In this document: positions 7,117 to 48,324 of the stretch, piece after piece
How the letters are laid out: the number at the start of each line of letters is the position of its first letter
Position numbering within the stretch: position 1 is the first letter of the stretch
Assembly (NCBI GenBank): GCA_050012475.1
Contig: JBEKHC010000043.1
Span: 1 to 50,785, forward strand
Length of the DNA stretch: 50,785 nucleotides
Direction of reading: 5' to 3'
DNA from: Candidatus Velthaea sp.
GTDB lineage: Bacteria; Vulcanimicrobiota; Vulcanimicrobiia; Vulcanimicrobiales; Vulcanimicrobiaceae
Made by a program: the position numbers and the translations under genes
The notes under the pieces: model-generated
Seen by the model: the letters and a program-made list of their open reading frames with translations, nothing else
Told to the model about the DNA's origin: nothing
The model's database searches: none

Positions 7117-7176
7117 GCGGCTTGCGGCGTAGCCGCAAACGCCACGGGTTCGGCGCAATGCGCCGAACCCTGCTGC
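7117..7176. repeat. REP-like palindromic repeat (family A)
   Basis: GCGGCTTGCGGCGTAGCCGCAAACGCCACGGG plus hairpin GGGTTCGGCGCA..TGCGCCGAACCC between convergent genes; related copies at 11630, 43575, 48826. Confidence 0.7.
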
Positions 7177-7571
7177 TAAGCGACTTCGTCGGGCCAGGCG
7201 GCGATGTGGCCCAAGGCGGCCGATTTGAGGACTTTGAGTCCGAGCGTGGCGCATTTCATGCGCGCGGGACTGATGCCGATCCCGACGTTTTCGATCACCG
7301 AGTCGACGGAAAGGTGCGCGACTTCTTCGAGGGTTTGGCCGCGAACGGATTCCAGCAGCATCGACGTTGCGGCGCGCGAGATCGCGCAACCCTTGCCCGA
7401 GAAACTGACGTCGTCGACGCGGCCCTCACCTGTCACGTGAATCTCGACGCGAATCGTGTCTCCGCATAACGGGTTGAGATCCTCCGCCACGGCGCTCGGT
7501 GCTTCGAGGTGGCCGAAGTTGCGCGGGTTGCGGTAGTGATCGAGAATGTACCCTTTGTAGAAATCGTCCAT
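7176..7571 (-). CDS. sufU: SufU-type Fe-S assembly sulfur-transfer protein (duplicate of 43658..44053)
   Basis: MDDFYKGYILDHYRNPRNFG...NPLCGD...GKGCAIS...RMKCA; same length as, and highly similar to, 43658..44053. Confidence 0.9.
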   Translation of the reverse strand: MDDFYKGYILDHYRNPRNFGHLEAPSAVAEDLNPLCGDTIRVEIHVTGEGRVDDVSFSGKGCAISRAATSMLLESVRGQTLEEVAHLSVDSVIENVGIGISPARMKCATLGLKVLKSAALGHIAAWPDEVA

Positions 7572-7700
7572 GGGTGCGAGCCGGGAAACCTCTGCCGCCT
7601 CTGGTTTTGCGGCGATCGGGACGCCGAAATCGGCGTCCGTATGGCATGAGTCGAAAATATTGGGAACGGTGGCGGAAGGTCGCGCGCAGTCCGGGGGCAC
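7572..7700 (-). pseudogene. sufS: decayed 3' remnant of sufS
   Basis: SATVPNIFDSCHTDADFGVPIAAKPEAAEVSRLA aligns ungapped (14/34 identical by eye) with the C-terminus SATARASFYIYNSEEDVDVLIGALEKAARVFRLA of SufS 44063..45313, in the same position relative to sufU. Confidence 0.7.
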
Positions 7701-7706
7701 GAGCTA

Positions 7707-7807
7707 GGGATGCTCTGATTTCGTCCTGGCGAGGAGCATAGCGGCGAAGTTTGCTTGAGCAAATGAGCCGCGTAGCGACGATGTCCAGGGCGAAATCAGA
7801 GCATCCC
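7707..7807. mobile_element. 101-bp MITE-like element (family B), copy 1
   Basis: Terminal inverted repeats GGGATGCTCTGATTTCG(T/C)CCTGG (22/23 match), TA on both flanks. Confidence 0.8.
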
Positions 7808-9174
7808 TAGACGCGGTCGGCCAAGCCTTCGAGCAGTTCGATGAAGTTGGTCACCTTCACCCGATCTTTGCCGCTGGCGCTGCCCAAGCTCTTCTCGTGG
7901 TCGTCGATCGCGAGCCAATCATGCCAGTAGGCGACGCGCACGCTGCGCTCAGCGAGCAGCCGATCGACCGCCGCCAAGTCGGGTTGTACGGCGCGCTCGA
8001 GTTTTGCGGCGTCCTCGAGCAGCGCGCGCGCGGTTTCCATTGCGCAGGCTTTATTCGTGCCGATGACGCCGGAGGGGCCGCGCTTGATCCAGCCGGTCGT
8101 ATACTGTCCGGCTAGCGGCTTGCCGTCGTCGGCAAGCACGCGGCCGGCCGCATTGGGGATCACGTGCGCGCGTGAATCGAACGGAACGCCGGGCAGGGCG
8201 CGGCCCCGGTAGCCGACCGCGCGCAGCACCATCTGCATCGGAATCCGCTCGAACTCACCCGTTCCGACGGCGTTGCCGCGTTCGTCGAGCCGGTTGCGCT
8301 CGATCACCAGCGCTTCGACGGCATCCTTGCCGGCGATCTCGACCGGTGAGGTGAGAAAGCGCAAATGCAGGCGCCGCGGTTTGCCCGTGAGGGGCCGCCC
8401 GGCAAAATCGCGCAAGATCTCCAGGTTGCGCTGGAGTGCCTGCTGCGCGGCGATCTCCGCGGCGCTGGCCGTGTCGAGTTCGATTTCTTTGGGGTCGACG
8501 ATGATATCGGCGTTGTCGAGTTCGCCCAGCTCGCGCAGTTCTTTGGTCGTGAATTTCGCTTGCGCGGGGCCGCGCCGGCCGAAGATGTACACGTCGCCGA
8601 TCTCGCTTTCGGCGAGTTTGTCGAGCACGGGGTGCGGAATATCGGTCGAGCGCAGTTCGTCGACGTGCTTGGCCAGGATGCGCGCCACGTCGACCGCGAC
8701 GTTGCCCACGCCGACAACGGCCGCGGCCTTCGCTCCGGCCGGAAGGTGCACGATTTCGCTATGATCGGGATGGCCGCTGTACCAGGCGACGAACTCGGTG
8801 GCCGACAAACTGCCGGCGAGATCTTCGCCCGGAATGCCCAACCGCCGGTCGTGCGGCGCTCCCACGGCATAGACGATCGCGTCGTAATAACGGCGCGCGT
8901 CGTCCACGGTGAGATCGGTCCCGAAATTGACGTTGCCCAAGAAGCGAACGCGCGGATCTTCGAGCGTCTTGTGAAACGTCGTGATGACCGATTTGATTTT
9001 CGCGTGATCGGGTGCGACGCCGTACCGCACGAGTCCGTAGGGTGTGTGCAGACGCTCGATGACGTCGATGCTGACCGTGTGGTCCTTCGCCTTGAGAAGC
9101 GCGTCGACCAGAAAAAGACCGGCTGGTCCGGCACCGACGACGGCGATACGCAGCGGCAAGGCGGGAGTGCTCAT
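7807..9174 (-). CDS. fprA: ferredoxin--NADP+ reductase, adrenodoxin-reductase/FprA type
   Basis: GAGPAG, PYGLVRYGVAPDH, GVGNVAVDVAR, RRGPAQAKFT, GWIKRGPSGVIGTN motifs. Confidence 0.85.
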   Translation of the reverse strand: MSTPALPLRIAVVGAGPAGLFLVDALLKAKDHTVSIDVIERLHTPYGLVRYGVAPDHAKIKSVITTFHKTLEDPRVRFLGNVNFGTDLTVDDARRYYDAIVYAVGAPHDRRLGIPGEDLAGSLSATEFVAWYSGHPDHSEIVHLPAGAKAAAVVGVGNVAVDVARILAKHVDELRSTDIPHPVLDKLAESEIGDVYIFGRRGPAQAKFTTKELRELGELDNADIIVDPKEIELDTASAAEIAAQQALQRNLEILRDFAGRPLTGKPRRLHLRFLTSPVEIAGKDAVEALVIERNRLDERGNAVGTGEFERIPMQMVLRAVGYRGRALPGVPFDSRAHVIPNAAGRVLADDGKPLAGQYTTGWIKRGPSGVIGTNKACAMETARALLEDAAKLERAVQPDLAAVDRLLAERSVRVAYWHDWLAIDDHEKSLGSASGKDRVKVTNFIELLEGLADRV

Positions 9175-9242
9175 AGCATATTATTCGCAGCCGAGGGCCG
9201 AGAACACTCCGCGGTTTGCCGCTCGGACATTTGTCGTACCGG

Positions 9243-9623
9243 TCAGTACTCGCTCAAGGCGTCGTCTCCGCATTCGCGCGTTCGGACGCGCATCGCCTCG
9301 AGCACGGGCAGCACGAAGATCTTGCCGTCGCCCGGGACCCCGGTTTTGTTGGTCCCGATGATGGTCCGGATGGCCGCGTCCAGATCGTCGTCCGAAACCA
9401 CGACGCTGAGCATCCGGCAGGGCAACAGCATCGGTCCCTCGCCGACTTGCACGCGGGGTGCTTCCGCGCGGCTCTCATCGCCCATGTGAACGGCACCGCC
9501 CTTGCCCAAACGGCCGCGGCCGACGATGTTGCGCGCGGTAAAGGCGGAGAAGCCCGCGTCGGCGAGCGCGATGCGGGTTCGATTGGCGCGTTGGTGCCGA
9601 ATGAAGGCGACGATTTGCTTCAT
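9243..9623 (-). CDS. nifI2: PII-family nitrogenase regulator NifI2-like
   Basis: MKQIVAFIR...T..AL..AGF.AFT...GRG..., TNKTGVPGDGKIFVLPV; long T-loop; coupled to nifI1 (ATGA overlap). Confidence 0.8.
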   Translation of the reverse strand: MKQIVAFIRHQRANRTRIALADAGFSAFTARNIVGRGRLGKGGAVHMGDESRAEAPRVQVGEGPMLLPCRMLSVVVSDDDLDAAIRTIIGTNKTGVPGDGKIFVLPVLEAMRVRTRECGDDALSEY

Positions 9624-9961
9624 GCGCGAACGGCTTCGGCGTCGCGTGTCCCGGTGCTGATCGTGTACGAGGCCGCAACGGGAAGAACGAAGATCTTGCC
9701 GTCGCCGAACGCGCCGCCGGCGTCGGTCCGGGCGGCGTGCTCGATCGTGTCGATGACGCGCTGCGCGTCGTCGTCTTCGACGACGATCATCAACATTTCT
9801 TTGGGCAGCTCGTCGTAACTGACTTCACCGATTCGAATACCGCGCTGCTTGCCGCGTCCGGCGACGTCGTATTTGGTCAAGGCCGGGAACCCGGCGTCGA
9901 GCAGTGCTTGAGCGACGGTATATGCTTTCTCGGGACGGACGATCGCTTGAACCATGACCAT
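9620..9961 (-). CDS. nifI1: PII-family nitrogenase regulator NifI1-like
   Basis: AIVRPEK...L.DAGFPALTK.DV.GRGKQRGIRIGEVSYDELPK...GAFGDGKIFV...YTISTG, characteristic of NifI1 (short T-loop); AGAGGT RBS upstream. Confidence 0.9.
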   Translation of the reverse strand: MVMVQAIVRPEKAYTVAQALLDAGFPALTKYDVAGRGKQRGIRIGEVSYDELPKEMLMIVVEDDDAQRVIDTIEHAARTDAGGAFGDGKIFVLPVAASYTISTGTRDAEAVRA

Positions 9962-10028
9962 GGCCGGTGGGGCACCTCTCGCAAACGGATTCGCGCCATC
10001 GTATCGCACGAACGATGGTATCGGTTAC

Positions 10029-10122
10029 AACATAGCGGTGCGGGAAATCGCAAACATTGTCCAAGCGGTACGCGTCCGTGCCGCTCGGCTCACCAATCGA
10101 CAAGTTGTTAGTCCGTCCTAAG
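10029..10122 (-). promoter_or_regulatory. conserved 94-bp element upstream of nifI1 (copy A)
   Basis: Aligns without gaps to 42344..42437(+), ~61/94 identical by hand, including GCGTACCGCTTGGACA; ends in -10-like TATGTT. Confidence 0.7.
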
Positions 10123-10181
10123 TAGCCTTCGGCGAACGGCCTTGGCCGCAGCCGAAGCCGGCTTCGGGGCGCAAGAACCTG

Positions 10182-10613
10182 CTAGGGGTGCTGCTCTTCG
10201 GCGTCGTGCGGGTTGCCGGGAAGGTTGCGCATCCAGTTCGCCATGTGCGCGAGCTCGGCGAGGACCTTGGAACGCGCTTCGGGATGTGCCACCGAATCTT
10301 CGAGCGCGCATCGCATGCAGTGCACCCAAGCGTCACGCTCGGCCTCGCCGATCGCGAAGCCGATATGGCGGCTGCGCAGTCGCGGAGGGCCTTTCTTCGC
10401 GGAATAGAGTTTCGGGCCGCCCAGCCACTCGCCGAGGTATTCCTTGAGCACTGCTTTGATCGTTCCGAGTTCGCGCGTGTGCATCGCCCGGATCGTCCGG
10501 GCTTCGGGAAACGTGTTCATTCGGGCGTAAAAAGCTTCCACCAATCGATCGACGCCGGCCGCTCCGCCGATGAAATCGAACAAAGAAACCTCACCCATCG
10601 TCGCTTCAATCAT
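10182..10613 (-). CDS. glbO: group II truncated (2/2) hemoglobin
   Basis: FDFIGG...RLVEAFY, WLGGPKLY, PRLRSRH..F.IG..ERDAW. Confidence 0.9.
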   Translation of the reverse strand: MIEATMGEVSLFDFIGGAAGVDRLVEAFYARMNTFPEARTIRAMHTRELGTIKAVLKEYLGEWLGGPKLYSAKKGPPRLRSRHIGFAIGEAERDAWVHCMRCALEDSVAHPEARSKVLAELAHMANWMRNLPGNPHDAEEQHP

Positions 10614-10769
10614 CTTCTCTCCCTTTGCTGCAACCTTCCATTTGGCGAACGCATGCGCGTGAATTCAGGATACCGTTCATTGACACGCAACCGAGCCGGA
10701 TGATAACGTGCCCATAGGGGGCTCGCGTTCGAATCGAGTTCCCATCCTGCATACTTTTTACCGCAGTGT

Positions 10770-10785
10770 CGGCGCGGCGTTTGCA
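10770..10785 (+). promoter_or_regulatory. sigma54-type -24/-12 promoter candidate for fdxN
   Basis: CGGCGCGGCGTTTGCA, GG-N10-GC with TTGCA, ~40 bp upstream of start. Confidence 0.5.
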
Positions 10786-10824
10786 GGTTTTCGGCGACAC
10801 GAGGCGTCCTAGGAGGGCTGCCAC

Positions 10825-11019
10825 ATGGCCTACAAGATCATTGCTTCTCAGTGCACGGTTTGCGGCGCTTGCGAATTCGATTGCCCAAATGCTGCTATTT
10901 CGCTCAAGCGCGGAATGTACACGATCAATCCCAAGCTGTGCACCGAATGCGAGGGTCATTTCGACTCGCCGCAATGTGCGACGCTCTGCCCCGTCGATAA
11001 CACCTGCGTTCCCGCCTGA
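10825..11019 (+). CDS. fdxN: 2x[4Fe-4S] ferredoxin, FdxN-like
   Basis: CxxCxxCxxxCP and CxxC-x8-CxxxCP; AGGAGG RBS. Confidence 0.9.
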
Positions 11020-11182
11020 GCGAAGCGGCCGCGCGAATCCCGCGCTGACCGATTGTTCCGTGCCGTTCGTCCGGCTTGCGAGGCAAACGACAATGAGCGC
11101 TCGTTCGTCCGACTTTGCGGACGATCTGTTCGGGCGGTTTCGCCAAAGCCGAAACGCGGCGCACGGCGCGTACGTCTGTTCA

Positions 11183-11573
11183 TTAGAGAATCCGGAGCGG
11201 GGAAAAGCCGGGGTCCCGCCCGAGCACGGTATTTACGGCCCGGCGGACCGATTCGACGGTGAGCGGTTTGGCGGCAGTCGCGGACGTCGTCCGTGCACTC
11301 GGCCACGAGCAGCACCCTCGTCTGAGGAATTTCGCGGGCGATCTCGTCGAACACACCAGCACCGTGTTCGCGCACGACCGCTGAGCCGAGCACGATGAGA
11401 TCGACTTTTCGTCCGGCGGATTTCGCGATCGCTTCGGCGACGGTAGCGATCTCATGCGTTTCATTCTCGTCATGCAGCATGAACTGGATGGCCGCGCGCG
11501 TTATCTCGTCGCTGTCGATCACGAAGATGCGTTTGTTTTCCAGGGCGCGCGAAATCTCAACTCCGATCTGCAT
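11183..11573 (-). pseudogene. nif-associated single-domain response-regulator-like protein, frameshifted by small deletion
   Basis: Receiver-like N-part (KRIFVIDSDEITR...VDLIVL...RVLLVAE) in one frame; KPLTVESVRRAVNTVLG C-terminus in another frame ending 11183; break ~11285. Confidence 0.7.
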
Positions 11574-11629
11574 ACGAAACCCTCAAGAAGCCGCTAACGC
11601 TAAAGCCATTCGGTGAGAGCAAACGCACT

Positions 11630-11707
11630 CGGCTCGCGGCCAAACCGCAAACGCCACGGCGGCTCGGCGCAGCCCAACGCAAAGGATTCGGCGCAGCCGA
11701 AATGCAC
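11630..11707. repeat. REP-like palindromic repeat (family A, degenerate tandem)
   Basis: CGGCTCGCGGCCAAACCGCAAACGCCACGG...TTCGGCGCAGCCGAA. Confidence 0.5.
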
Positions 11708-12580
11708 TTAGCCACCGGCGGCCACGGCCTGCGCGGCAACCAGGCCGCGGCTGGTCTCAAGGGCCGCCGCGAAATCCTCCAGCCGCGTATCGATCCGCTC
11801 GATGTGCTGCTCGGTCAAGAAGCGCAGTTCGTTTCTGGTCGGCTGCTCGGGAAGCACGGCCCAATGCCTGGCCGATGAGCGTTTCATGATCTGCCGCGCG
11901 AAGATCCGATCGAGCTGCGTTGCGAACCGGCAGCCGAGGAACAGGAAATGCCGTCCGGTCCGCAGCTGCTGAACTCTCTCGGGAATCGGGGTTTGGATAT
12001 CGATCTCGGTGAGCACTTCGACGAAATCGGAATCGGACACCAGAAAATTTGCGGCCGGCGAGACCGATCCGAACGGCTGGTACAGCAGCGTATCCCACGC
12101 GGCGTCATCGACCGGTCTAGCGCCGGCTTCAAAGTAGTGCACCCAGCTCCCGAAGTGCTCCGCCTGGCTGACGCCTTGCGCGCTGCCCCAGCTCGTTCGA
12201 GCGGCCAGTGCGTTCTGCGGAAGATCGTCGTACCAAGCATGAACCAGCAGCGGAAGCACCGGCAGCGCGGCCAGCAAGCGGTGCAAATCGGTTGGGGGGA
12301 CGGACGCCCGGAACGCTTCGGTCATGGCCGATTTCACGGTCCGGCGGTGTTTGAAGTTTTCGATGAACTGTGCTGCGGCGGTGAGGTTTTTACGAATCTT
12401 GTGCGGCACGGTCGCCTTTGCGGTAAGCCGCTCTACGAGCGCCAGCGGCGAAGCGGGCAGCGGGCAGTTCTCGCCCGCCAGGCTGAGAAGCCCGGGACCG
12501 AGGTAGGGCACGGCGTGCCCACGGTCGAGTGCGGCAACGATTTCGTGCATCGTTTGAGTTGGCAAGACGAGTTCAGTCAT
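11708..12580 (-). CDS. nif-associated SIR2-like (SIR2_2) protein
   Basis: VPYLGPG at N-terminus, LVSDSDF, FLFLGCRF motif. Confidence 0.8.
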   Translation of the reverse strand: MTELVLPTQTMHEIVAALDRGHAVPYLGPGLLSLAGENCPLPASPLALVERLTAKATVPHKIRKNLTAAAQFIENFKHRRTVKSAMTEAFRASVPPTDLHRLLAALPVLPLLVHAWYDDLPQNALAARTSWGSAQGVSQAEHFGSWVHYFEAGARPVDDAAWDTLLYQPFGSVSPAANFLVSDSDFVEVLTEIDIQTPIPERVQQLRTGRHFLFLGCRFATQLDRIFARQIMKRSSARHWAVLPEQPTRNELRFLTEQHIERIDTRLEDFAAALETSRGLVAAQAVAAGG

Positions 12581-12637
12581 GTTTGCTCCGGCTGCTGCGC
12601 TTTCGCAGCGGCCCTAGAGGGCTGCGCTACGTGCAGC

Positions 12638-12693
12638 CCGTCGCGTTCGGGCTTCGCCCGAGCCGCCGTCGCGTTCGGGCTTTGCCCGAGCCG
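12638..12693. repeat. 2x28-bp tandem hairpin repeat (family C)
   Basis: CCGTCGCGTTCGGGCTT(C/T)GCCCGAGCCG x2; same unit at 21106. Confidence 0.8.
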
Positions 12694-12731
12694 CCCATGG
12701 ACTTGCGGCCGATCCGTTCGCTCGCATCGCA

Positions 12732-13883
12732 TTAGTAAATCGCCGACCCGGCGCCGACGTTCGTCGACGCATCTTTCAGCGTTCCAACCACGAACGCAAT
12801 TTGGTCCTCATCGAGATGGCCATGGAACGGAAGCGCGACGGCGCGGTCGGATATTTTTTCGGCCGTGATAAAGTCGCCGCGCCGGCAGCCCATCTCGATG
12901 TAGCAGGACTGAAGGTGCAGCGGCACGCTGTACGGCGCGGCCTGGATGCCTTCGGTCTTCAGATCGTCGACGATCGCGTCGCGGCTCGAGCGCGAGAATC
13001 GCGCTCCCAGCTGAGCGAGATACAAAAACCAGTGGATCTCGTCCACGCCCGGTGCAACATACGGATCCTTGATGCCCTCGAACGACTTGACGTATTTGAA
13101 GTACAAGCGTTCGGTGCGCTTGCGGCGGGCGAGGATGCCGTCGATCCGCCGCAGCTGTTCGAGGCCCAGCGCCGCGGCCACGTCGCTCATCACCGCCGCA
13201 TAGGGCGCCGAGGCACCGGCGACCTCCGAAGACCGCTCTTTGGTGCGGTGCGTCCGCAGACCGCGCAGCTGCGAGGCGATCGTATCGTCGTCGGTTACGA
13301 TCATACCGCCCTCGCCGCACACCAGCGGCCCGGGCTGCGAGAAATCAAAGACCGCGCAATCGCCGAAGCCGCCCACGCGGCGGCCTCCGTAGACCGAGCC
13401 GATCGCCTCCGTCGAATCTTCGATCAGCACTAGGCCGCGACGCCCGGCAAGCTCGCGGAACTCATTCCACGGAGCCGGATGGCCGTTGGCGTTACCGGCA
13501 ATGATCGCGCGCGTTTTCGGCGTGATCCGGGCCTCGGCTTTCTGCGGTGAAAGCGTGCCGGCCCAGTAGTCGATATCGGCAAAGCGAGGAGTTGCGCCGG
13601 ACAGGGCGATCGCGTGCGCGGCTTCACGCCAGGAATGCGGCGAGGCGATCACTTCGTCGTCGCGCCCGATGCCGTAGGCTTTGAGCGCGAGCAGCACGCC
13701 GAGTGTCCCGCTGGAAACCGCGATCGCGTGAGCGCGGCCCGTGTACCGGGCGAACGCAGACTCGAATTCCGCGGTCGCCGGACCGCCGCCGGACAGCTGC
13801 GGTGATTGCAGGACAGCCCCGACGGCCGCCAGTTCCGCGGTCGAGATGTCGGGGTCCGAGAGCAGGATCGCGGTTTGAATCAT
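12732..13883 (-). CDS. DegT/DnrJ/EryC1/StrS-family aminotransferase-like protein
   Basis: FE..FA.Y.G..HAIAVSSGT, LIEDSTEAIGS, GEGGMIVTDD, ALPFH; usual PLP-lysine position reads SQPGPL. Confidence 0.85.
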   Translation of the reverse strand: MIQTAILLSDPDISTAELAAVGAVLQSPQLSGGGPATAEFESAFARYTGRAHAIAVSSGTLGVLLALKAYGIGRDDEVIASPHSWREAAHAIALSGATPRFADIDYWAGTLSPQKAEARITPKTRAIIAGNANGHPAPWNEFRELAGRRGLVLIEDSTEAIGSVYGGRRVGGFGDCAVFDFSQPGPLVCGEGGMIVTDDDTIASQLRGLRTHRTKERSSEVAGASAPYAAVMSDVAAALGLEQLRRIDGILARRKRTERLYFKYVKSFEGIKDPYVAPGVDEIHWFLYLAQLGARFSRSSRDAIVDDLKTEGIQAAPYSVPLHLQSCYIEMGCRRGDFITAEKISDRAVALPFHGHLDEDQIAFVVGTLKDASTNVGAGSAIY

Positions 13884-14152
13884 GGCTTCGCGGCGACCAC
13901 GACGCCGGTTGCGCGAGCCGGGTCTGCCGTGAGGCGCCAACAATGATCGCTTGCGTCAACGAGATAGAGATTAAAGCGCTCGTAGACGCGAAACGGCGGC
14001 TCGACGCCGAGATCCGACACATCGCAGCGCGTCAGCGAGAGCTCCGGAAAATCCTGACGAAAGCCGGCCAGCCAGCCGGAGCCGGCATCCGGTCCGCCCA
14101 GCGCAGCGTCGATCTTCGTCAGCGCAGCTTCGTTCAACGCCACGTCAGTCAT
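13880..14152 (-). CDS. conserved nif-associated hypothetical protein
   Basis: 90 aa ORF coupled to neighbours; LTRCD.SD...YLVD..DHCW.LT.DP..ATG.V pattern. Confidence 0.7.
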   Translation of the reverse strand: MTDVALNEAALTKIDAALGGPDAGSGWLAGFRQDFPELSLTRCDVSDLGVEPPFRVYERFNLYLVDASDHCWRLTADPARATGVVVAAKP

Positions 14153-14363
14153 CGACGACCGCGAGACGGCGCGCTTCGACGGTGATCGGCAGTGTCGTCT
14201 CCGGGCTCATGACGGGCAGTTCCAATCGCCAACCGTTTGCCAGCGTGACCAGACCGCCCCACATCTGCGGCTTTTCAATGGTCACGATCGGCTCTTCGAG
14301 GTCTTTCTTGGCAATATATGCCGATAACGCGCCCTCGGCGTTCTTGCGGATCATGACTTTCAT
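14145..14363 (-). CDS. nifT: nitrogen fixation protein NifT/FixU
   Basis: MKVMIRK...LSAYIAKKDLEEP...WGG.VTLANGW...LPITVEA. Confidence 0.9.
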   Translation of the reverse strand: MKVMIRKNAEGALSAYIAKKDLEEPIVTIEKPQMWGGLVTLANGWRLELPVMSPETTLPITVEARRLAVVDD

Positions 14364-14373
14364 GCGGTATCCT

Positions 14374-14703
14374 TCATTGCCAAAATATCCGCTCGGGGTC
14401 GTTCTTCAACGAGTCGAGCAGATCGGTAAGCCGCGCGTTCGCGGTGTGCAGTTTCCAACTCGCGCTGGCATGGTCTTTGCAGTACATCCGCCACCGTCCG
14501 GAGGGCAGCCGCTGCAGCAACGCAACGTCGACCATTCCGCCGGCTTCGTCGACGCGCCGGGAACAGCACGGGCTCTCCACGAGGATCCCGTTGGACACCA
14601 TGCGCACCGACGGGCTCACGTAACGGTAGCGCTTTCGCTTATCGATCGCGCGCTCGATCAGTCTGCGCTCGAACTCGTTGACCTCCGGCAGCTCGAGGGT
14701 CAT
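14374..14703 (-). CDS. nif-associated DUF3024-like protein
   Basis: RKRYRYVSP.V...SPCCSR.VD..GG..D.A...DPERIFWQ. Confidence 0.7.
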   Translation of the reverse strand: MTLELPEVNEFERRLIERAIDKRKRYRYVSPSVRMVSNGILVESPCCSRRVDEAGGMVDVALLQRLPSGRWRMYCKDHASASWKLHTANARLTDLLDSLKNDPERIFWQ

Positions 14704-14939
14704 GCCGGTGCGAGCTCCCCCTCGAGGCAGCCGACCACGCGATTCGCACCGAACTCGACCAGATAAACGGGCGTGTTCGATTCCGTATGCGTGCCGACTT
14801 GCACGACTTCGCCGCTGTCGCCCTCTTGCACCAGCAGTGCCTCGGGCGGGCACTCCGGGAACGAGCCGTCGTTATAGAGATCGAGAAGCGCCTGCACGCG
14901 CTGTCCCCACTGAAATTTGGGGCCGACGGGCTCCATCAT
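14700..14939 (-). CDS. nifZ: NifZ family protein
   Basis: PKFQWGQRV.A..DL.NDGSFP...G..GEVVQVG...Y.VEF...VVGC.E.EL. Confidence 0.85.
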   Translation of the reverse strand: MMEPVGPKFQWGQRVQALLDLYNDGSFPECPPEALLVQEGDSGEVVQVGTHTESNTPVYLVEFGANRVVGCLEGELAPA

Positions 14940-15789: not shown

Positions 15790-15793
15790 CGCT

Positions 15794-16165: not shown

Positions 16166-16173
16166 AGCGGCAC

Positions 16174-40065: not shown

Positions 40066-40172
40066 GCGCGGTGCGTCAAGCCGGCGGCAGCGGAGCGTCG
40101 TAGCGTACATTTCTTCAACGGTACTTTGATTCGCGTTGTGTTCCGCTGGGGCGTCGCTTCTCAAGCGCTTCA

Positions 40173-40273
40173 GGGATGCTCCGGTTTAACCCTGGCCGAG
40201 GAGCATAGCGGCGAAGTTTGTTTAGCAAAAAAGCCGCGTAGCGACGACGTCTAAGGCTAAATCAGAGCATCCC
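40173..40273. mobile_element. MITE-like element (family B), copy 3
   Basis: GGGATGCTC...GAGGAGCATAGCGGCGAAGTTTG...AAATCAGAGCATCCC, 101 bp. Confidence 0.78.
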
Positions 40274-40557
40274 TTGATGAGAACAAGCAGTGGACAAGTG
40301 TCGATTGTCAGTTTCAACGAGCCATGCTCTGAAGTGAGGGCCGGCCTTGAAGCGTAGGCGATCGCCAAGCCGAATTACCACAATAGCTGTTGCGCTCGGT
40401 GAACCTGACCAATGTGCTGCAATTGCCATAGCCGGGACATGCAAAAAGCGCAAGAATAGCTCATCGACTTCAGCCTCAGTGCATGAAAACATGATAGTAA
40501 GTTGTGTCGGCCCGCTGGAGCCAGCCGGCATGAACTTATGCGAACAGGAGTAGACAA

Positions 40558-41996: not shown

Positions 41997-42343
41997 CAGA
42001 AAGAGCGCACGTCGATCGGTGATTGAACGTCACCGCTTGAAAACGCCGATCGAACTTGCGACGCGGCGGTCGCTCGGCGTACTTGCAGACCGCTTCATTC
42101 CGAACGGGTCGAAGCGAGAGACTCCGGTCAGCGCCTGCCGGCTTACCGTTTGACGGGACCGAACGCGTTTGCGGCGTCGCTTCGATCGTTCTCCCGTGTA
42201 TTGGCACGGTTCTCGACCAGCGACCGCTCCGATTGGCTAAATCGAAATGCGATCCATTGTGCGAAGTGATTACTTCGTTGTATCCGCGGGCGAACGCTGC
42301 GTAGAAGTACCGCGTCCTCAACAGAAAACCGGCGCCGCATGAG

Positions 42344-42437
42344 CTTAGGACGACCTAACCGTTTGTCCATTGGTGGAGTCAGTCATTGATGTGCGTACCG
42401 CTTGGACAGTGAGTGAGATGTTGCGCCGCGTTATACT
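42344..42437 (+). promoter_or_regulatory. conserved 94-bp element upstream of sufR copy (copy B)
   Basis: Ungapped match to 10029..10122(-); ends in -10-like TATACT. Confidence 0.7.
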
Positions 42438-42564
42438 TTTCATCACCGAATACTTTTGATTACCGAGACATTCGCACACAACGATCGCGACGGCGACGAC
42501 CATTGCGGAGGAGCCCATCGCTTACGTTCTTTCCCTCTTTGCGCGCGATGATAGGTGCACAGAC

Positions 42565-43233
42565 ATGCACGGCGATTGGTTTTTCGATACAGCGCGCGGA
42601 AAAATCGTGGCCGCTTTGCGCGGCCGCCGCGGAGCTTCGGCATTCGATCTAGCTCGTGAATTTGGCCTGTCGACCAACGCTGTAAGACAGCAGTTCATCT
42701 TGCTCGAGCGCGACGGGTTGGTGACGGCGTCGAGCGTGCGGCGCGGTAAAACCAAGCCGACCGTCGAATACCGGCTGACGCCTGCGGCGGAGAAGTACTT
42801 TCCGCAGCATTACGACCGGATGCTCAATGCGGTCTTGCGCGAAGTGCGCGCGAACGGTGGTGACGATGCGGTAGCGGCGATCTTCCAGTCGATGAGCCGT
42901 CGCCAGGCCGACCGGCTCAACGCCGACGTCGAAGAACGGCCGGTAGCCGAACGCGTCGCTGCGCTCACCGATCTGCTGCGCGAGTCTGGCGTCGAAGCCA
43001 AAGCGGAAGAAACGGCGGCCGGATTCACGATTCACGAGCAGAACTGTCCCTACGCCGAGACCGTCGGCGAACATCCCGAGATCTGCGGTTTGATCCGTTC
43101 GGTGATCCAGGACGTCGTCGCGCCGGGAGTCGTCCAGACGGATTCGCTCGCGACGGGCGGAACGGAATGTCGATTCGAAATCACGACCGGCAACAAGGCG
43201 GCGCGGGAGGATCCGGCAACCGGCGAGAGCTAA
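42565..43233 (+). CDS. sufR: SufR-like HTH regulator (island-side paralog)
   Basis: wHTH N-terminus, NCPY...EIC...ECRF Cys motif; near-identical to 47617..48324. Confidence 0.85.
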   Translation: MHGDWFFDTARGKIVAALRGRRGASAFDLAREFGLSTNAVRQQFILLERDGLVTASSVRRGKTKPTVEYRLTPAAEKYFPQHYDRMLNAVLREVRANGGDDAVAAIFQSMSRRQADRLNADVEERPVAERVAALTDLLRESGVEAKAEETAAGFTIHEQNCPYAETVGEHPEICGLIRSVIQDVVAPGVVQTDSLATGGTECRFEITTGNKAAREDPATGES

Positions 43234-43556
43234 CGCCGTCGAAAGCGGAGAACGGGCCCGACGAGTTGCTCGATCGCCAGCGCCATGACGAGCGCCCAAC
43301 ATTCGATGACGGAGAGATCGCCGCTCCGCGAAGCGGCCGGCGCGCTGACCGCGACGGCCGCCCCCATCGCCAACGACCCGGCGATCGCGCGCAGCACGCC
43401 GCGAACGATCGAGCGGCGCTCGCGCAGACCGGCGCGCACGTCGGCGAGCAGGCGCACGGGCGAGCGAGTTCCGATGTCCCAGATCACGAGCGCCGTCGTA
43501 TTGAGCAGAATAGCCAACGCGATTCGAACCGCATCGACCGCGAACCCGCTACTCAC
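43230..43556 (-). CDS. small hypothetical membrane protein
   Basis: Part of ORF 43230..43634 with three hydrophobic stretches; GTG start at 43556 is a guess. Confidence 0.4.
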   Translation of the reverse strand: MSSGFAVDAVRIALAILLNTTALVIWDIGTRSPVRLLADVRAGLRERRSIVRGVLRAIAGSLAMGAAVAVSAPAASRSGDLSVIECWALVMALAIEQLVGPVLRFRRR

Positions 43557-43574
43557 CCCAGCCCAACCGGCGAA

Positions 43575-43657
43575 GCGGCTTGGCGCGTAGCGCCAAACGC
43601 GACGGGCGGCTTGCGGCGCAGCCGCAAACGCCAAAGGTTCGAGGCAGTCGAACCCGG
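43575..43657. repeat. REP-like palindromic repeat (family A, two units)
   Basis: GCGGCTTGGCGCGTAGCGCCAAACGC and GCGGCTTGCGGCGCAGCCGCAAACGCC..GGTTCGA..TCGAACC. Confidence 0.7.
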
Positions 43658-44053
43658 TTAGGCGACTTCGTCAGGCCACGTAGCAATCTGGCCGAGCGCC
43701 GCGGATTTGAGCACCTTGAGCCCGAGCGTCGCGCATTTCATGCGGGTCGGACTGATGCCGATCCCGACGTTCTCGAGCACCGTTTCTTTCGATAAGCGCG
43801 CGACGTCCTCGAGTTTTTGTCCGCGGACGGAATCGAGCAGCATCGACATCGAGGCTTGTGAGATCGCGCAGCCCTTGCCCGAGAAGCGGACATCGTCGAC
43901 GCGTCCGTCGTCATCGACGTGCAGTTCGACCCGAATCGTGTCGCCGCAGAGCGGATTGAAATCCTCGGCAACGGCCGTCGGCGCATCCATGTGGCCGAAG
44001 TTGCGCGGGTTGCGGTAGTGGTCGAGAATATATTCTTTGTAGAAATCGTCCAT
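43658..44053 (-). CDS. sufU: SufU
   Basis: YILDHYRNPRN, NPLCGD, GCAISQAS, RMKCA; follows sufS. Confidence 0.92.
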   Translation of the reverse strand: MDDFYKEYILDHYRNPRNFGHMDAPTAVAEDFNPLCGDTIRVELHVDDDGRVDDVRFSGKGCAISQASMSMLLDSVRGQKLEDVARLSKETVLENVGIGISPTRMKCATLGLKVLKSAALGQIATWPDEVA

Positions 44054-44062
44054 TGATCGGTC

Positions 44063-45313
44063 TCAGGCCAGCCGGAAGACGCGGGCAGCCTTTTCGAGTG
44101 CGCCGATGAGCACGTCGACGTCTTCCTCGCTGTTGTAGATGTAAAAGGATGCACGTGCGGTGGCGCTCCAGCCCATCTTGTCCATGAGCGGCATCGTGCA
44201 GTGATGTCCGGCTCGCACGCAGACGCCCTCGGTGTCCAAGAGCGAGGCCAAGTCGTGGGCGTGGATGTCGCCGAGATTGAAACTGATGACGCCGGCTCGA
44301 TCCTCAGCCCGCGGCGGCCCGTAGATCGCGAGGCCCCGTCCGGCCAACGTTTGCAGCCGCGCGAGTGCGTAGCGCGTGAGCTCGATCTCGTGCGCGCGCA
44401 CCCACTCCATGCCGATGCCCGTGAGGTAATCGACGGCCGCACCCAGCGCGATGGCATCGGCGATGTTGCTGGTTCCGGCCTCGAACTTCCAGGGCAGTTC
44501 GTTGAACGTCGACTCGGTATACTGAACCCGGCGAATCATGTCGCCGCCGGTTAGAAACGGCGGCATCGCGTCGAGCAGCTCGCGCCGGCCGTACAAGAAG
44601 CCAATGCCCGTGGGGCCGCACATTTTGTGCCCCGACGCGGCGAAGAAGTCGACCTCGAGATCTTGCACGTCGATCTTCATGTGCGGCACCGATTGTGCAC
44701 CGTCGACGAGCACGACCGCCCCCGCGGCGTGCGCGAGCGGCACGATCTCCTCGAGCGGCACGATCGAGCCCATCGTGTTGCTCACATGCGTGAGCGCGAC
44801 GAGCTTGACGCCGCTGAGCTTTTCCTCGAGATCGTCGAGCAGCAAGTTGCCGTCCGCGCCGGCGCTGATGAACCGCAGCTCGGTACCGGTTTTCGCAGCC
44901 AGTAGCTGCCAGGGCACGAGGTTCGAGTGATGTTCGAGTTCGGTGGTGAGGATCGCGTCGCCCGGCTTGAGGTTGGTCAAACCCCACGAGAAGCTGACGA
45001 GGTTGATCGCTTCGGTTGTGTTGCGCGTCCAGATGATCTCGGCCGCTTCGCGCGCGCTGATGAAGCGGGCTACTTTCTCACGCGCGCCCTCGAACGCCGC
45101 CGTCGCGCGTTCGGCCAGTTCGTACACGCCGCGGTGGATGTTGGCGTTGTACGACGTGTAGTAGTCGACGAGCGAATCGATGACGGCTTGCGGCTTCTGA
45201 GAGCTGGCAGCCGAATCGAGATAGACCAGCCGTTTTCCGCGCGACGTCGGCTTGGCGAGGATCGGGAAGTCGGCGATGATCCGGGCGAGCTTCGGATCGG
45301 CTGCGGCGAGCAT
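44063..45313 (-). CDS. sufS: cysteine desulfurase SufS (host)
   Basis: YLDSAASSQKP, EHHSN, SGHKM, RAGHHC. Confidence 0.95.
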   Translation of the reverse strand: MLAAADPKLARIIADFPILAKPTSRGKRLVYLDSAASSQKPQAVIDSLVDYYTSYNANIHRGVYELAERATAAFEGAREKVARFISAREAAEIIWTRNTTEAINLVSFSWGLTNLKPGDAILTTELEHHSNLVPWQLLAAKTGTELRFISAGADGNLLLDDLEEKLSGVKLVALTHVSNTMGSIVPLEEIVPLAHAAGAVVLVDGAQSVPHMKIDVQDLEVDFFAASGHKMCGPTGIGFLYGRRELLDAMPPFLTGGDMIRRVQYTESTFNELPWKFEAGTSNIADAIALGAAVDYLTGIGMEWVRAHEIELTRYALARLQTLAGRGLAIYGPPRAEDRAGVISFNLGDIHAHDLASLLDTEGVCVRAGHHCTMPLMDKMGWSATARASFYIYNSEEDVDVLIGALEKAARVFRLA

Positions 45314-45315
45314 GG

Positions 45316-46692
45316 CTAATCGATCTCCGTCGCGGCGTCGATCTTGGCGTCGAGTGCGGTGCGAATCTCGTCGCGCAACCGCTCGCCGGGGAAGCGCGAG
45401 ACGACCGGCTCGAAGAAGCCCAGCGCGATCATCCGCAGTGCGTCGGGCCGCGTGATGCCGCGGCTGCGCGCGTAGAACAGCTGCTCGTCGTCGACCGAGC
45501 CGACCGTCGCGCCATGGAAGGCTTTGACGTCGTTGGCGGCGATTTCGAGCGCCGGAACCGAGTCGATGTGCGCGGTCTTGGACAGCAGCAGCGCGTCGTC
45601 ACGCAGCGACGCGTCGCTCCCGTGGGCTTGTTTGCGAATGGCGATGTTGCCGAAGAATCGGCCCTGCCCGCGATCGGTCGCGGCGCTGCGCACGACGGTG
45701 TTGGACGTCGTCTGACCGACGCGATGATCGGTGTGCACCGTGAGATCGACGTGCTGGGTGGCGCCGGTAAAAAACAAGGCGGACGCCTCGCCCGCGGCGC
45801 CTTCGCCGGTGAGCGCGGTGGTGACGACGCTGCGCGCCAAGCCGCCGCCCAACTCCGCGAGCTGCCAACGCATCGTGGCGTCGCGCTCGCAGCGCGCACC
45901 GCGGCTGGCGAAGATGCGCGCTTCCGGATCGGCCTGCTGAATGCTGACCACGTCGAGCGACGCGCCCGCTCCGACGTGCGCTTCCACGATCCCGCAAACG
46001 AAGGCGTCGCCTTCGCCGGCGTGCCGTTCGATCACCGTCGCGCGGGCGCCGGCCCCGAGCACGATCGCCACGTGCGGAAAGACCGCCGCAGCTTGCGCTT
46101 CGCCGTTGACGAACAGCAGTTGAATGGGAGCTTCGACGGCGACGCCGTCAGGCACGTACACGAACGCGCCGCAGTTCTGGAACGCCGTCGTCAACGCGGC
46201 AAACCGGTCGGCATGCGGATCGACGATCTGGTGCAGCACCGGGGTCAGCAGATCGGCGTGGTCGCGCAGCGCGTCGGCCAGCGACGTTACGATCACGCGC
46301 GGATCCGCCGAGGTCGGGCCCGGGCCTTCGAGCAGCGTTGCACCGAGATGCACCAAACCGCCGGCGTTCTCCGTTGCAAGCGCGGGACGGTCGGCATCGA
46401 GATCGCCGGCGGCGGTCGCGGCAAGCGGCATGGTCGGCACGCTGCGCCGGCCCGAGTCCCACTGCAGCGCCTCGAACGGCAGTTTGGCGTAATCGTAGCG
46501 CCACGAGCGGCCGGGAAATCCGCCCGGAACCGGCAGCACGCCGTACGCGGCGAAGGCGGCCCGGCGGTCCGCGGCGGCGACGGCGCTGCCGGAACCGGTA
46601 CCGGCCCGTTCGAGAAAAGCGAGTGCCGCCTCGAGCGTCCCGGGCGTCGGGAGAAACGCGATCGCGGCAGGCGGCGCGGTGATGCTAGGCAA
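45316..46692 (-). CDS. sufD: SufD (host)
   Basis: WRY, PALEI.ANDVKAFHGAT, LFYARSRGI; TTG start overlapping sufC stop. Confidence 0.85.
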   Translation of the reverse strand: MPSITAPPAAIAFLPTPGTLEAALAFLERAGTGSGSAVAAADRRAAFAAYGVLPVPGGFPGRSWRYDYAKLPFEALQWDSGRRSVPTMPLAATAAGDLDADRPALATENAGGLVHLGATLLEGPGPTSADPRVIVTSLADALRDHADLLTPVLHQIVDPHADRFAALTTAFQNCGAFVYVPDGVAVEAPIQLLFVNGEAQAAAVFPHVAIVLGAGARATVIERHAGEGDAFVCGIVEAHVGAGASLDVVSIQQADPEARIFASRGARCERDATMRWQLAELGGGLARSVVTTALTGEGAAGEASALFFTGATQHVDLTVHTDHRVGQTTSNTVVRSAATDRGQGRFFGNIAIRKQAHGSDASLRDDALLLSKTAHIDSVPALEIAANDVKAFHGATVGSVDDEQLFYARSRGITRPDALRMIALGFFEPVVSRFPGERLRDEIRTALDAKIDAATEID

Positions 46693-47449
46693 CGCTGCTC
46701 GCCACCTCGTCGCGAATCTTGTCGTAGCCTTCGCGTTCGATCAGGTTCGCGAGTTCGGGGCCGCCGGTCTTCACGATCCGCCCGTCCATCATGATGTGCA
46801 CGACGTCGGCGGGGATGTAGTTGAGAATGCGCGGGTAGTGCGTGATGATGAGAAACGCGCCGCTTGCACCGGCTTCCGTCGCGCGCAGCGCGTTGATCGA
46901 CCGGCCGACCGACTGCAGCGCATCGACGTCCAGGCCAGAATCGGTTTCGTCCAAGACCGCGTACTTGGGCTGCAGCATCGCCAGCTGCAGCATTTCGAGG
47001 CGCTTTTTCTCGCCGCCCGAAAAACCGTCGTTGACGTAGCGCGACAGAAACGCGGGATCCATGTCGAGCACGTCGAGCTGGTCGAAGATCATCTTGCGGA
47101 ACTTCGCGGGCGGGAGATCGTCGGGCCGGACGGCCATGCGCGCCGTGCGAATGAAGTTGGCGACCGAGACGCCTGGGATGGCGGCCGGGTACTGGAACGA
47201 CAGAAACAAGCCGGCCTTGGCCCGCTTGTCGGGCGCCAGGCCGATGAGTTCCTCGCCGTCGAGCCGCACCGAGCCCTCGAGCACCTTGTAATTCGGGTGG
47301 CCGCTCATCGCAAACGCGAGCGTCGACTTGCCGCTGCCGTTGGGTCCCATGAGCGCGTGCACTTTTCCCGGCTCGACGTCGAGATCGATCCCTTTGAGGA
47401 TCTCTTTCTCTTCGACGGCGACCCGCAGGCCGCTGATTACTAGACTCAT
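46685..47449 (-). CDS. sufC: SufC (host)
   Basis: GPNGSGKST, FQYP, GFSGGEKKR, LDETDSGLD, ITHY; AGGAG RBS. Confidence 0.95.
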   Translation of the reverse strand: MSLVISGLRVAVEEKEILKGIDLDVEPGKVHALMGPNGSGKSTLAFAMSGHPNYKVLEGSVRLDGEELIGLAPDKRAKAGLFLSFQYPAAIPGVSVANFIRTARMAVRPDDLPPAKFRKMIFDQLDVLDMDPAFLSRYVNDGFSGGEKKRLEMLQLAMLQPKYAVLDETDSGLDVDALQSVGRSINALRATEAGASGAFLIITHYPRILNYIPADVVHIMMDGRIVKTGGPELANLIEREGYDKIRDEVASSVA

Positions 47450-47560
47450 TGAACTCCTGACGGACGCATGCGGCTCTCGCCTAAAATGTTGCTGGCGCAC
47501 CGACCGAACGCACGCCATACGCGCGCACCGGTACCGAGCACGATGGTAGCTTTGCGCGTC

Positions 47561-47590
47561 AAGAAAGTCAAGGAAAGTCTGGACTTTCTT
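47561..47590. promoter_or_regulatory. inverted repeat, candidate SufR operator in divergent sufC/sufR promoter
   Basis: AAGAAAGTC-N12-GACTTTCTT, followed by -10-like TACGAT. Confidence 0.55.
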
Positions 47591-47616
47591 CTCGTACGAT
47601 GGTAGGCTGCTGGGGT

Positions 47617-48324
47617 ATGCACGGCGACTGGTTTTTCGACACAGCGCGCGGCAAGATCGTAGCTGCCTTGCGCGGCCGCCACGGTGCGTCGGCAGTCGAT
47701 TTGGCGCGAGAATTCGGCCTTTCGACGAATGCGATCCGTCAGCAGTTCGTGCTGCTCGAACGTGACGGGCTGGTCACGGGGTCGAGCGTGCGGCGCGGCA
47801 AGACCAAGCCGACGGTCGAATACCGGCTCACGCCGGCGGCTGAAAAGTACTTCCCGCAGCATTACGACCGGATGCTCAACGCCGTGCTGCGCGAGGTGCG
47901 CGAGACCGGCGGCGACGATGCCGTGCAGGCGATCTTCAACGCGATGAGCCGCCGCCAAGCCGGACGACTCAAAGCGCGGCTCGAGGAACGGCCGGTCGCC
48001 GAACGCGTCGCCGCGCTGACGGATCTGTTGCGCGGCTCGGGCGTCGAGGCCGAAGCCGAACAAACCGCGGGCGGCTTCACCATCCGCGAACACAATTGCC
48101 CGTACGCCGAGACCGTCGGCGAACATCCGGAGATTTGCGGTTTGATCCATTCCGTGATCCGGGACGTCGTGGCCCCGCGGGTCATTCAGACCGATTCGCT
48201 CGCAACCGGCGGCACCGAGTGCCGGTTCGAGATTTCGACAAGCAGCGCCGCCGCACCGGATGCACCGGACGGGCAAGTTGGGGAGCAGCCGAGTGGATTT
48301 CGCGAAGTTTCAGCAGCTCGTTGA
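47617..48324 (+). CDS. sufR: SufR-like HTH regulator (host)
   Basis: Divergent from sufC; wHTH plus NCPY...C...C motif. Confidence 0.88.
   Translation: MHGDWFFDTARGKIVAALRGRHGASAVDLAREFGLSTNAIRQQFVLLERDGLVTGSSVRRGKTKPTVEYRLTPAAEKYFPQHYDRMLNAVLREVRETGGDDAVQAIFNAMSRRQAGRLKARLEERPVAERVAALTDLLRGSGVEAEAEQTAGGFTIREHNCPYAETVGEHPEICGLIHSVIRDVVAPRVIQTDSLATGGTECRFEISTSSAAAPDAPDGQVGEQPSGFREVSAAR

Follow-up and report, generated by a model that had tools for sequence, protein, structure and literature searches.

Chromosomal nif islands without an integrase are known from bacteria, for example the 49-kb nif island of Pseudomonas stutzeri A1501. Integrative and conjugative elements (ICEs) and symbiosis islands, such as the tRNA-targeting rhizobial ICEs, transfer nif genes as one block. 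Also familiar in bacteria are segmental or tandem duplications whose spare copy then diverges, as well as rearrangements associated with repetitive extragenic palindromic (REP) sequences. Here we describe a 34.8-kb island of nif, fix and suf genes (approximately 7704-42545) in a 50,785-nt stretch of DNA from Candidatus Velthaea sp., a Velthaea-like member of the Eremiobacterota (contig JBEKHC010000043.1, positions 1-50,785; the window, from here on). The island lies next to the intact suf operon of the host. It is bracketed on the left by a second copy of sufU, with about 100 nt of a sufS remnant, and on the right by a second copy of sufR. These extra copies are called sufU' and sufR'. In our best explanation, which we consider probable, the nif island landed in a redundant copy of the suf locus that had arisen by segmental duplication, and the genes at the edges of this copy were kept.

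The island resembles that of P. stutzeri A1501 in being a large proteobacterial Group I nif block between conserved genes, in a lineage otherwise without nif, and with neither an integrase nor a tRNA at its edge. It differs in its recipient, a member of the Eremiobacterota, in its position inside a partial duplicate of an essential operon, in the host-derived paralogues under selection at its edges, and in having its own sufABCDSU-T genes. With ICEs and symbiosis islands it shares the horizontal transfer of nif in one block. Unlike ICEs, the block is without an integrase, relaxase, type IV secretion genes, tRNA target or att-like repeats. Collinear paralogues, one novel joint (between sufR' and the small gene orfY), an end of homology at a REP, a disrupted spare copy and faster evolution of the retained genes are all features in common with segmental duplications. 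What sets the locus apart from these is that the interior of the spare copy was swapped for 35 kb of foreign DNA, instead of diverging gene by gene.

Our literature search found no Group I nif island in Eremiobacterota. The sole nif report found, in its main text, presents a metagenome-assembled genome (MAG) of Ca. Lamibacter sapmiensis (Baltobacteraceae), with Cluster III and IV nifH and nifI1/I2, as the first evidence to connect the phylum with N2 fixation (PMC11180709), and a passage in a moss study cites that paper for nif homologues in Eremiobacterota (PMC11437008). Ca. Lamibacter sapmiensis belongs to the same phylum as our host and likewise has its nif genes on contigs with Eremiobacterota signal, whereas the cluster in the window is of Group I and has nifQ, nifW, nifZ and fixABCX. 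A literature search on nif genomic islands in combination with suf and tandem duplication returned nothing relevant. Integrase-free nif islands as such are known; what is new is one that appears to have settled in the segmental copy of an essential operon and to have recruited the edge genes.

An extra block bounded by the two ends of a suf locus

Species-representative genomes were scanned with host SufU, which yielded 80 related loci, each around sufU and nearly all labelled as Eremiobacterota or Vulcanimicrobiota MAGs (best SufU match 89% identical). These loci reach at least 2 kb past sufU in 69 of 80 cases and at least 5 kb in 58, and all counts of absence in relatives refer to these stretches around sufU. 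The order common to the related loci is MBL ... nifU-like, sufR / sufC, sufD, sufS, sufU, and the whole order from sufR to sufU is held in 61 of them. None has a second sufU (0/80), and none has nif, fix or other island genes (0/80; the island SufS and SufU queries only cross-matched the resident genes).

The two closest relatives are L001 and L002, the latter also a Ca. Velthaea sp. In both, the genes of the suf operon stand in the same order as in the window and are 80-94% identical to it at the amino acid level. The host sufR is syntenic in relatives, the nifU-like gene on the right flank is 89-92% identical in these two, and corA on the left flank is 71-74% identical to the gene after their suf locus. 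The order past sufU is sufU-orfY-X-corA in L001 and sufU-orfY-corA in L002. Gene X of the window is 52.8% identical in amino acids to L001 10802-12091, located between orfY and corA, and the spacer between X and orfY measures about 55 nt in L001. The order of L001 and L002, corA-(X)-orfY-sufU-S-D-C/sufR-nifU-like, is the ancestral one; relative to it, the window has an extra block of 36.1 kb (7117-43229) between X and orfY. The ends of the block are the two ends of a suf locus.

On the left, a self-BLAST of the window pairs 7117-7571 directly with 43606-44053, with 79.8% identity over 455 nt that comprise sufU and a REP-like repeat. SufU' and host SufU are 81.7% identical over 131 amino acids. 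Both exceed the cutoff of the SufU family TIGR01994 (98.3 bits for sufU' and 103 bits for host sufU, cutoff 92.5), with only profile positions 2-89 of 137 matched. The repeats at 7117-7157 and 43606-43646 are 88% identical over 41 nt; more REP-like copies lie at 43575-43615, 48843-48882 and 11629-11669, and the longest exact strings common to the REPs are about 14 nt. A REP with a hairpin stands directly 3' of sufU in both window copies, and L001 and L002 are without it. Gene X, whose true start is probably near 7109, begins a few bases past the REP edge where the left homology ends. The left copy is without orfY.

Upstream of sufU' follows what is left of a second sufS. Compared in a register anchored at the sufU start, its 99 nt (7575-7673) agree with the last part of host sufS at 54.5% of positions. 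This score exceeds the best of 20,000 random windows (47.5%) and the best of 4,882 codon-registered coding windows (51.5%). The anchored register was decisive, a free-end-gap nucleotide alignment being uninformative. As a protein, the remnant is not significant (BLAST 14/34 identical, E 0.19; profile of 68 SufS sequences, E approximately 0.5-0.7). Among the homologues of the extra copies, drawn from a large protein collection of metagenome-derived clusters and numbered with a P, the U'-type P0241 bears a similar sufS-remnant-like stretch, read as an N-terminal extension. The adjoining 7704-7811 is not sufS sequence but the first copy of a 105-nt palindromic element, with further copies at 20977-21079 and 40172-40277.

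On the right, 42546-43187 pairs directly with 47597-48239 (sufR, 81.7% over 644 nt), and SufR' and host SufR are 85% identical over 220 amino acids. Homology to the host locus ends about 20 nt upstream of the sufR' start, and sufR' has neither the native promoter/operator nor the last 12-15 or so codons. Its stop overlaps the stop of orfY (CTAA), a novel junction at which orfY is complete at its C-terminus. Remnants of sufD, sufC, the sufC/sufR promoter or the nifU-like gene were sought at both junctions, and none was found. Taken together, the duplicates are collinear: sufU'(-)...sufR'(+) matches sufU(-)...sufR(+), and the sufS remnant and the REP are contiguous with sufU'.

The gene orfY, at this joint, is 55% identical in amino acids to L001 10412-10744. 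It has a match in 57 of the 80 related loci, in 48 of them on the same strand and within 1.5 kb downstream of sufU. The product of about 110 amino acids is hydrophobic and membrane-like, without a Pfam family, with counterparts at L001 10415-10744 and L002 10416-10787. The gene possibly belongs to this suf operon and has gone unrecognised.

Origin, age and selection of the extra copies

Phylogenetic trees group the extra copies with the host genes. In the sufR DNA tree of the genome loci, sufR and sufR' are sisters (support 100/99) within a 100/100 clade with L001 and L002. In the corresponding sufU tree, sufU, sufU', L001 and L002 form one clade (100/98). SufR proteins were analyzed in a quick tree of 69 rows and in a careful tree of 27 of these, the clade of interest and its neighbours. 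In the latter, 10 rows make up an R' clade (99/93); together with 7 host-type rows it falls into a larger clade of 100/100 support. The SufU protein tree has a U' clade of 3 rows (100/99), P0241 and P0242 among them, on a long stem (0.35) inside a 96/89 clade with 3 host-type rows. This nesting, and the REP and hairpin in both copies, place the origin of the extra copies inside the narrow lineage of the host, whether in this very genome or in that of a very close relative; they have persisted through later diversification. Both a tandem duplication and an import from a close relative would fit these data.

The third-position identity of the copies is 59%. Non-synonymous (dN) and synonymous (dS) divergences were estimated with NG86, YN00 being unusable for most pairs owing to saturation. 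They amount to 0.117 and 0.767 for sufU/sufU' and to 0.098 and 0.902 for sufR/sufR', with a dN/dS ratio of 0.11-0.15. Three-point branch estimates, which are rough arithmetic, give an omega of about 0.17 for sufU' and 0.10 for sufR'. Both genes are intact, and these ratios indicate purifying selection and not decay. Their branches in the DNA trees are longer, that is, the retained copies evolved faster. The dS between the suf genes of the window and their L001/L002 orthologues is 0.70-1.26, next to 0.77 for the sufU pair and 0.90 for the sufR pair. The split of the duplicates is old, on a par with the divergence between species. The sufS remnant differs at 45.5% of sites, versus about 20% for the retained genes. 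We infer that this corresponds roughly to neutral decay on one branch since the duplication, and that the second sufS was broken soon after copying. Host-type REPs inside the island (11629-11669, 12620-12695 and 21106-21135) and an island GC content at third codon positions (GC3) equal to that of the host fit a long residence.

The initial annotation had read the left boundary as a sufU with a decayed sufS 3' end and the REP of the host sufU, the right boundary as a sufR oriented as in the intact locus, and the copies as diverged at synonymous sites. The comparisons above agree with it in all three respects. Its view of a second host-lineage suf copy, with the middle occupied by foreign nif genes, is likewise upheld by the collinearity, the trees and the lack of a second sufU or nif among the relatives. 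The wording "decayed second copy" describes the sufS remnant well; it does not describe sufU' and sufR', which are intact, constrained and represented by orthologues elsewhere.

R'- and U'-type sequences also occur in other metagenomes, and the SufR' cluster is found on three contigs, the longest of 480,680 bp. The R'-type clusters include those of P0002 (longest contig 20,469 bp), P0004 (59,825 bp), P0015 and P0016. The R'-type P0006 and P0136, a partial homologue of the Fer2-rubrerythrin protein of the island, both have a longest contig of 2952 bp. This fits the two lying on one contig that spans the right junction, a chance match being possible.

P0054, a SufR-like protein 70% identical to SufR', and the Fer2-rubrerythrin homologues P0126, P0127 and P0130 (85%) have the same longest contig of about 385,96x bp. 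The shared length hints that a further lineage of Eremiobacterota has the island.

Island content, regulatory sequences and flanks

Gene families were assigned by NCBIfam and Pfam profile scans of the open reading frames (ORFs) of the window. All six of nifHDKENB pass their TIGR cutoffs (NifD passes TIGR01282), and nifX, nifQ, nifS, nifV, nifW and nifZ are also present. This content points to a Group I, aerobe-type Mo-nitrogenase cluster of the proteobacterial type. Neither nifA nor nifU proper was found in the island by the family scans. NifD is 87.5% identical to that of a Methylococcus plasmid and 82-84% identical to those of Bradyrhizobium and Paraburkholderia. For the same plasmid the values are 87.7% for NifH, 78.8% for NifK and 83% for NifE, and NifH, K, E, N and X span 72-88%. 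The Methylococcus region likewise has a pair of response-regulator and truncated-globin genes upstream of nifH. Further proteobacterial affinities are seen in the island SufB, 75-78% identical to Burkholderiaceae and Azospirillum, and in the Fer2-rubrerythrin protein, whose named matches are Alphaproteobacteria (72-76%). Judged by these matches, the gene content of the island is foreign to the host lineage and horizontally acquired. Integrase-type families were sought among ORFs of at least 100 amino acids in 7176-43233, and no integrase, transposase or relaxase was found there. The block also has no tRNA genes, and neither type IV secretion genes nor att-like short repeats were found in it.

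Several genes of the island deserve mention for other reasons. At the edge of the nif cluster, two divergent P-II genes (9243-10009, minus strand) adjoin a gltD-like gene for an FAD/NAD oxidoreductase (7807-9174, minus strand). The pair resembles NifI1/NifI2, an arrangement tied to Cluster III systems (PMC11180709). Genes for a SIR2_2 protein (11708-12580), a DegT-type aminotransferase (12732-13943) and a DUF3024 protein (14374-14853), all on the minus strand, stand between regulator-like genes and nifZ. The fixC gene (38527-39742, plus strand) is split, with its N-terminal part (ATG at 38527) and its C-terminal part in different frames and about 50 residues missing (profile positions 67-119). 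The break is either an internal out-of-frame deletion, which would make it a pseudogene, or an assembly error.

Two kinds of repeated sequence belong to the island. Each of the three copies of the 105-nt palindromic element stands just 3' of a gene end (gltD-like, nifD and fixX, respectively) and forms a perfect hairpin (dG -46 to -66 kcal/mol, z -4.3 to -9.8). In the folded sequences, where one copy departs from another in one arm, the opposite arm has the matching change, a hint that the hairpin has been selected for. The element has no match in the 80 related loci (0 matches), none in the Methylococcus region and none in Rfam. The second kind is a 77-nt module, a TTAGG-N-CCTAA palindrome with a 16-nt exact block. 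It occurs in one copy at 10046-10122 on the minus strand and one at 42343-42419 on the plus strand, and both of its motifs are found only at these two places in the window. The local alignment score of the copies is 47, with null maxima of 25 and 30 (0/1000 and 0/2958 reach the score), and there is no match in the 80 related loci or the Methylococcus region. The operon of the two P-II genes and the gltD-like gene reads toward sufU' through the palindromic element and the sufS remnant. Since one module copy lies upstream of this operon and the other upstream of sufR', sufU' and sufR' may both be driven by the same island regulator. A sigma-54 consensus scan gave 19 matches with 18.2 expected, a sigma-70 and terminator scan of 7000-10300 gave nothing useful, and an Rfam scan gave 0 matches.

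The resident locus has a regulatory site of a different kind. A GAAAGTC-N2-GACTTTC palindrome, followed by TTGACTTTC, is seen in sufR/sufC intergenic regions. This operator-like palindrome is present in the host and in five relatives (L001, L005, L010, L013 and L066), that is, in 6/6 of the regions inspected out of 51 extracted. It is likely the SufR operator in Eremiobacterota and would overlap the sufC promoter. The window has one exact match to it, the native site; the next match, with 3 mismatches, is at chance level. The two regulators score 65.9 bits (host sufR) and 58 bits (sufR') with TIGR02702, both under the cutoff of 178.8, and host sufR matches HTH_20 and MetOD1. The name SufR-like therefore rests on position, helix-turn-helix (HTH) domain, cysteines and the conserved palindrome. 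As in the cyanobacterial SufR operons described by TIGR02702, an HTH regulator with C-terminal cysteines is divergent from suf, with a palindrome between them. The differences are the scores, far below the equivalog cutoff (58-66 bits against 178.8), and an operon, sufC-sufD-sufS-sufU-orfY, in which only one gene is of the SufB/D family.

The features of the window are listed in Table 1. The region left of corA (1-4500) has no counterpart in any of the 80 related loci, L002 included. It encodes a DUF4238 protein and a tyrosine-recombinase fragment (3999-4442), which is below threshold, lies outside the block and is the sole integrase-like fragment seen. The region is possibly the remains of another mobile element. 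Among the relatives, L014 and L045 are two contigs of one MAG, each with a complete suf locus and with nearly identical sufU, which is better explained by redundant strains in the bin than by a duplication. Split sufR matches in L014 and L062 are frameshifts or errors. Six loci with typical Eremiobacterota suf synteny and tree positions (L003, L006, L035, L046, L067 and L077) come from records titled Janthinobacterium, Rhodospirillales, Limnocylindria/Limnocylindrales, Binatia or Alphaproteobacteria; these titles are probably binning or labelling errors.

Table 1. Coordinates of the suf loci, the nif island and neighbouring features in the window
Feature	Position	Strand	Remarks
corA	4572-5681	-	TIGR00383, E 4.5e-52; ancestral left flank
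gene X	5751-7145	-	ancestral left flank; no NCBIfam or Pfam match
REP-like repeat 3' of sufU'	7117-7157		followed by hairpin at ~7148-7170; left end of duplicated homology
sufU'	7176-7571	-	131 aa; intact paralogue of host sufU
sufS 3'-end remnant	7575-7673	-	decayed, pseudogene remnant
palindromic element, copy 1	7704-7811		105 nt; left island junction
nif island	7807-42545		minus-strand arm ~7807-18046, plus-strand arm ~18485-41993
island minus-strand genes	~7807-18046	-	gltD-like, two P-II, globin, response-regulator-like, SIR2_2, DegT, DUF3024, nifZ, hesB, nifB
regulatory module, copy 1	10046-10122	-	upstream of P-II/P-II/gltD-like operon
island plus-strand genes	~18485-41993	+	nifHDKENX, fdx, nifQ, sufA-sufBCDSU-sufT, nifS, nifV, nifW, fixAB(C)X, Fer2-rubrerythrin
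regulatory module, copy 2	42343-42419	+	upstream of sufR'
sufR'	42565-43233	+	222 aa; intact paralogue of host sufR
orfY	43230-43562	-	small conserved gene 3' of sufU in relatives
two overlapping REP-like repeats	43575-43646		between orfY and host sufU
host sufU	43658-44053	-	NCBIfam; part of intact operon 43658-47518
host sufS	44063-45313	-	NCBIfam
host sufD-like	45316-46692	-	NCBIfam
host sufC	46685-47518	-	NCBIfam
operator-like palindrome GAAAGTC-N2-GACTTTC	47573-47588		sufC/sufR intergenic region
host sufR	47599-48324	+	SufR-like ArsR-family regulator, divergent from sufC
nifU-like gene	48260-48826	+	NifU_N domain; ancestral right flank; REP after it at 48843-48882

How the island may have reached the locus

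The arrangement can be explained by three steps. In the ancestral locus, corA-X-orfY-sufU-sufS-sufD-sufC was followed by sufR and the nifU-like gene, read divergently. A segment from the REP and sufU to sufR would have been duplicated, most simply by a tandem duplication of orfY..sufR, the first orfY being lost between the REPs. A proteobacterial-type Group I nif/fix island with its own sufABCDSU-T would then have taken the interior of the redundant copy, by an insertion that would have been illegitimate or driven by some other mechanism, without guidance by suf homology. In this step the redundant copy would have been stripped of its promoter/operator, of sufD and sufC in full and of the greater part of sufS. 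Since the neighbouring copy is intact, the disruption of an otherwise essential operon would have been costless. The purifying selection on sufU' and sufR', together with their position downstream of the two module copies, suggests that they were probably recruited into the expression programme of the island. SufU' may work as a NifU/IscU-like sulfur-transfer or scaffold protein, which is a plausible job for a NifU_N-type protein in an island with nifS and without nifU proper. SufR' may work as an Fe-S-sensing regulator.

A number of observations weigh against this sequence of events or loosen parts of it. A plain tandem duplication predicts an orfY beside X; as there is none, an extra deletion has to be assumed. 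The sufR'/orfY joint may be secondary and not the original duplication joint, because several R' homologues (P0003, P0006 and P0009) have longer, native-like C-terminal tails. The pairing of sufU with sufU' is weak in the DNA tree (87/30). In the 27-row SufR protein tree, more than one branching order of R and R' fits, as approximately unbiased (AU) tests reject neither the 7 host-type rows as one clade (p 0.12) nor the window sufR together with R' (p 0.315). The dS values are near saturation, so that the dating is rough. There is no compositional break at the island: GC3 is 0.67-0.85 inside (FixB left out) and 0.64-0.85 outside, with no GC step. The canonical operator was found near no island gene in the window scan. 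Finally, the co-transcription, the regulation by the module and the functions of SufU' and SufR' are predictions from sequence.

The most substantial alternative is that the 36-kb unit of REP, sufU', sufS remnant, nif genes and sufR' was built in a closely related species, with the island replacing sufSDC there, and was later inserted illegitimately into the spacer between X and orfY. The block lies exactly between these two genes and its left end is at the REP boundary, so no separate orfY deletion is needed. The complete suf set of the island could compensate for the lost sufSDC. The divergence of the copies (dS 0.77-0.90) is about the between-species level (0.70-1.26), and the R' clade, with 10 clusters, is more diversified than the 7 host-type rows that co-cluster with it, with more than one branching order fitting the tree. 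On the other hand, sufR' is the sister of the resident sufR among the genome representatives (100/99), and the REP and hairpin in both copies are lineage-specific, so the donor must be a very close relative. Two illegitimate joints would be needed in a spacer of about 55 nt (L001), and a genome of the donor type, with a single suf locus interrupted by nif, is absent among the 80 loci. We consider such an import unlikely. A bolder proposal, in which we place little confidence, takes the island for a self-sufficient, integrase-free nif cassette with its own complete SUF, overwriting a suf operon or lying beside one. Here, sufU' and sufR' would be portable homology arms among related Eremiobacterota and also a rewired Fe-S supply and sensing circuit under a duplicated promoter module.

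The initial annotation had proposed integration or spread guided by suf homology, without a dedicated integrase. In such a scheme, suf sequences would act as arms for homologous recombination with the suf locus of a recipient. The island is indeed bracketed by suf paralogues in native order, the block contains no integrase, transposase or tRNA, and the island sufBCDSU could compensate for replaced sufSDC. The lack of a dedicated integrase noted there agrees with what is seen; it is an absence and not a mechanism. The junctions do not bear out the guiding homology: the island sides consist of the palindromic element and the gltD-like gene on the left and of non-coding DNA with the module on the right, without suf similarity (7704-7900 and 42000-42545). 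A double crossover via sufU and sufR would replace the resident locus and not leave an intact neighbour, whereas a single crossover would put orfY beside X, which is not seen. Furthermore, arms and resident genes share only about 80% identity. The island suf genes are inverted relative to those of the host, 67-74% identical in nucleotides to parts of host sufS and sufC, and at least 20 kb away from the junctions. A nif-interrupted suf locus is found in none of the relatives (0/80). This route is thus very unlikely, and island-flanking paralogues alone are no evidence of homology-guided integration. Even less credible are two further accounts. An assembly artefact, joining the suf loci of two strains with a foreign nif contig, could be suspected because the assembly is evidently of the metagenome type, all relatives are MAGs and fixC looks broken, possibly through an assembly or consensus error. 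Yet copies of about 80% identity with exact REP strings of about 14 nt are too short a match to mislead an assembler. A decayed sufS remnant and a sufR' without promoter and tail are unlike strain variants, and host-type REPs lie inside the island. In addition, other data sets contain separate clades of R' and of U', the same remnant turns up in one of these clades, and the SufR' cluster extends over the three contigs mentioned above. Independent recruitment, with sufU and sufR copied singly into an island already between X and orfY, would suit two genes that are both useful to a nitrogenase cluster and both under selection. It hardly agrees with a sufU' that retains the adjoining sufS 3' end and the downstream REP and hairpin, with a gene order and orientation that reproduce the native locus, or with the similar dS of both pairs.

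Landing in a segmental duplicate of the suf locus, which we continue to regard as probable, would mean that a duplicated essential operon can offer a harmless site for a large foreign island, with its edge genes kept and apparently rewired. This may be a route by which horizontally acquired pathways gain host-adapted accessory genes. Eremiobacterota are abundant in bogs, tundra and mosses, and a Group I Mo nitrogenase cluster in this phylum bears on the question of who fixes nitrogen in nitrogen-poor ecosystems.

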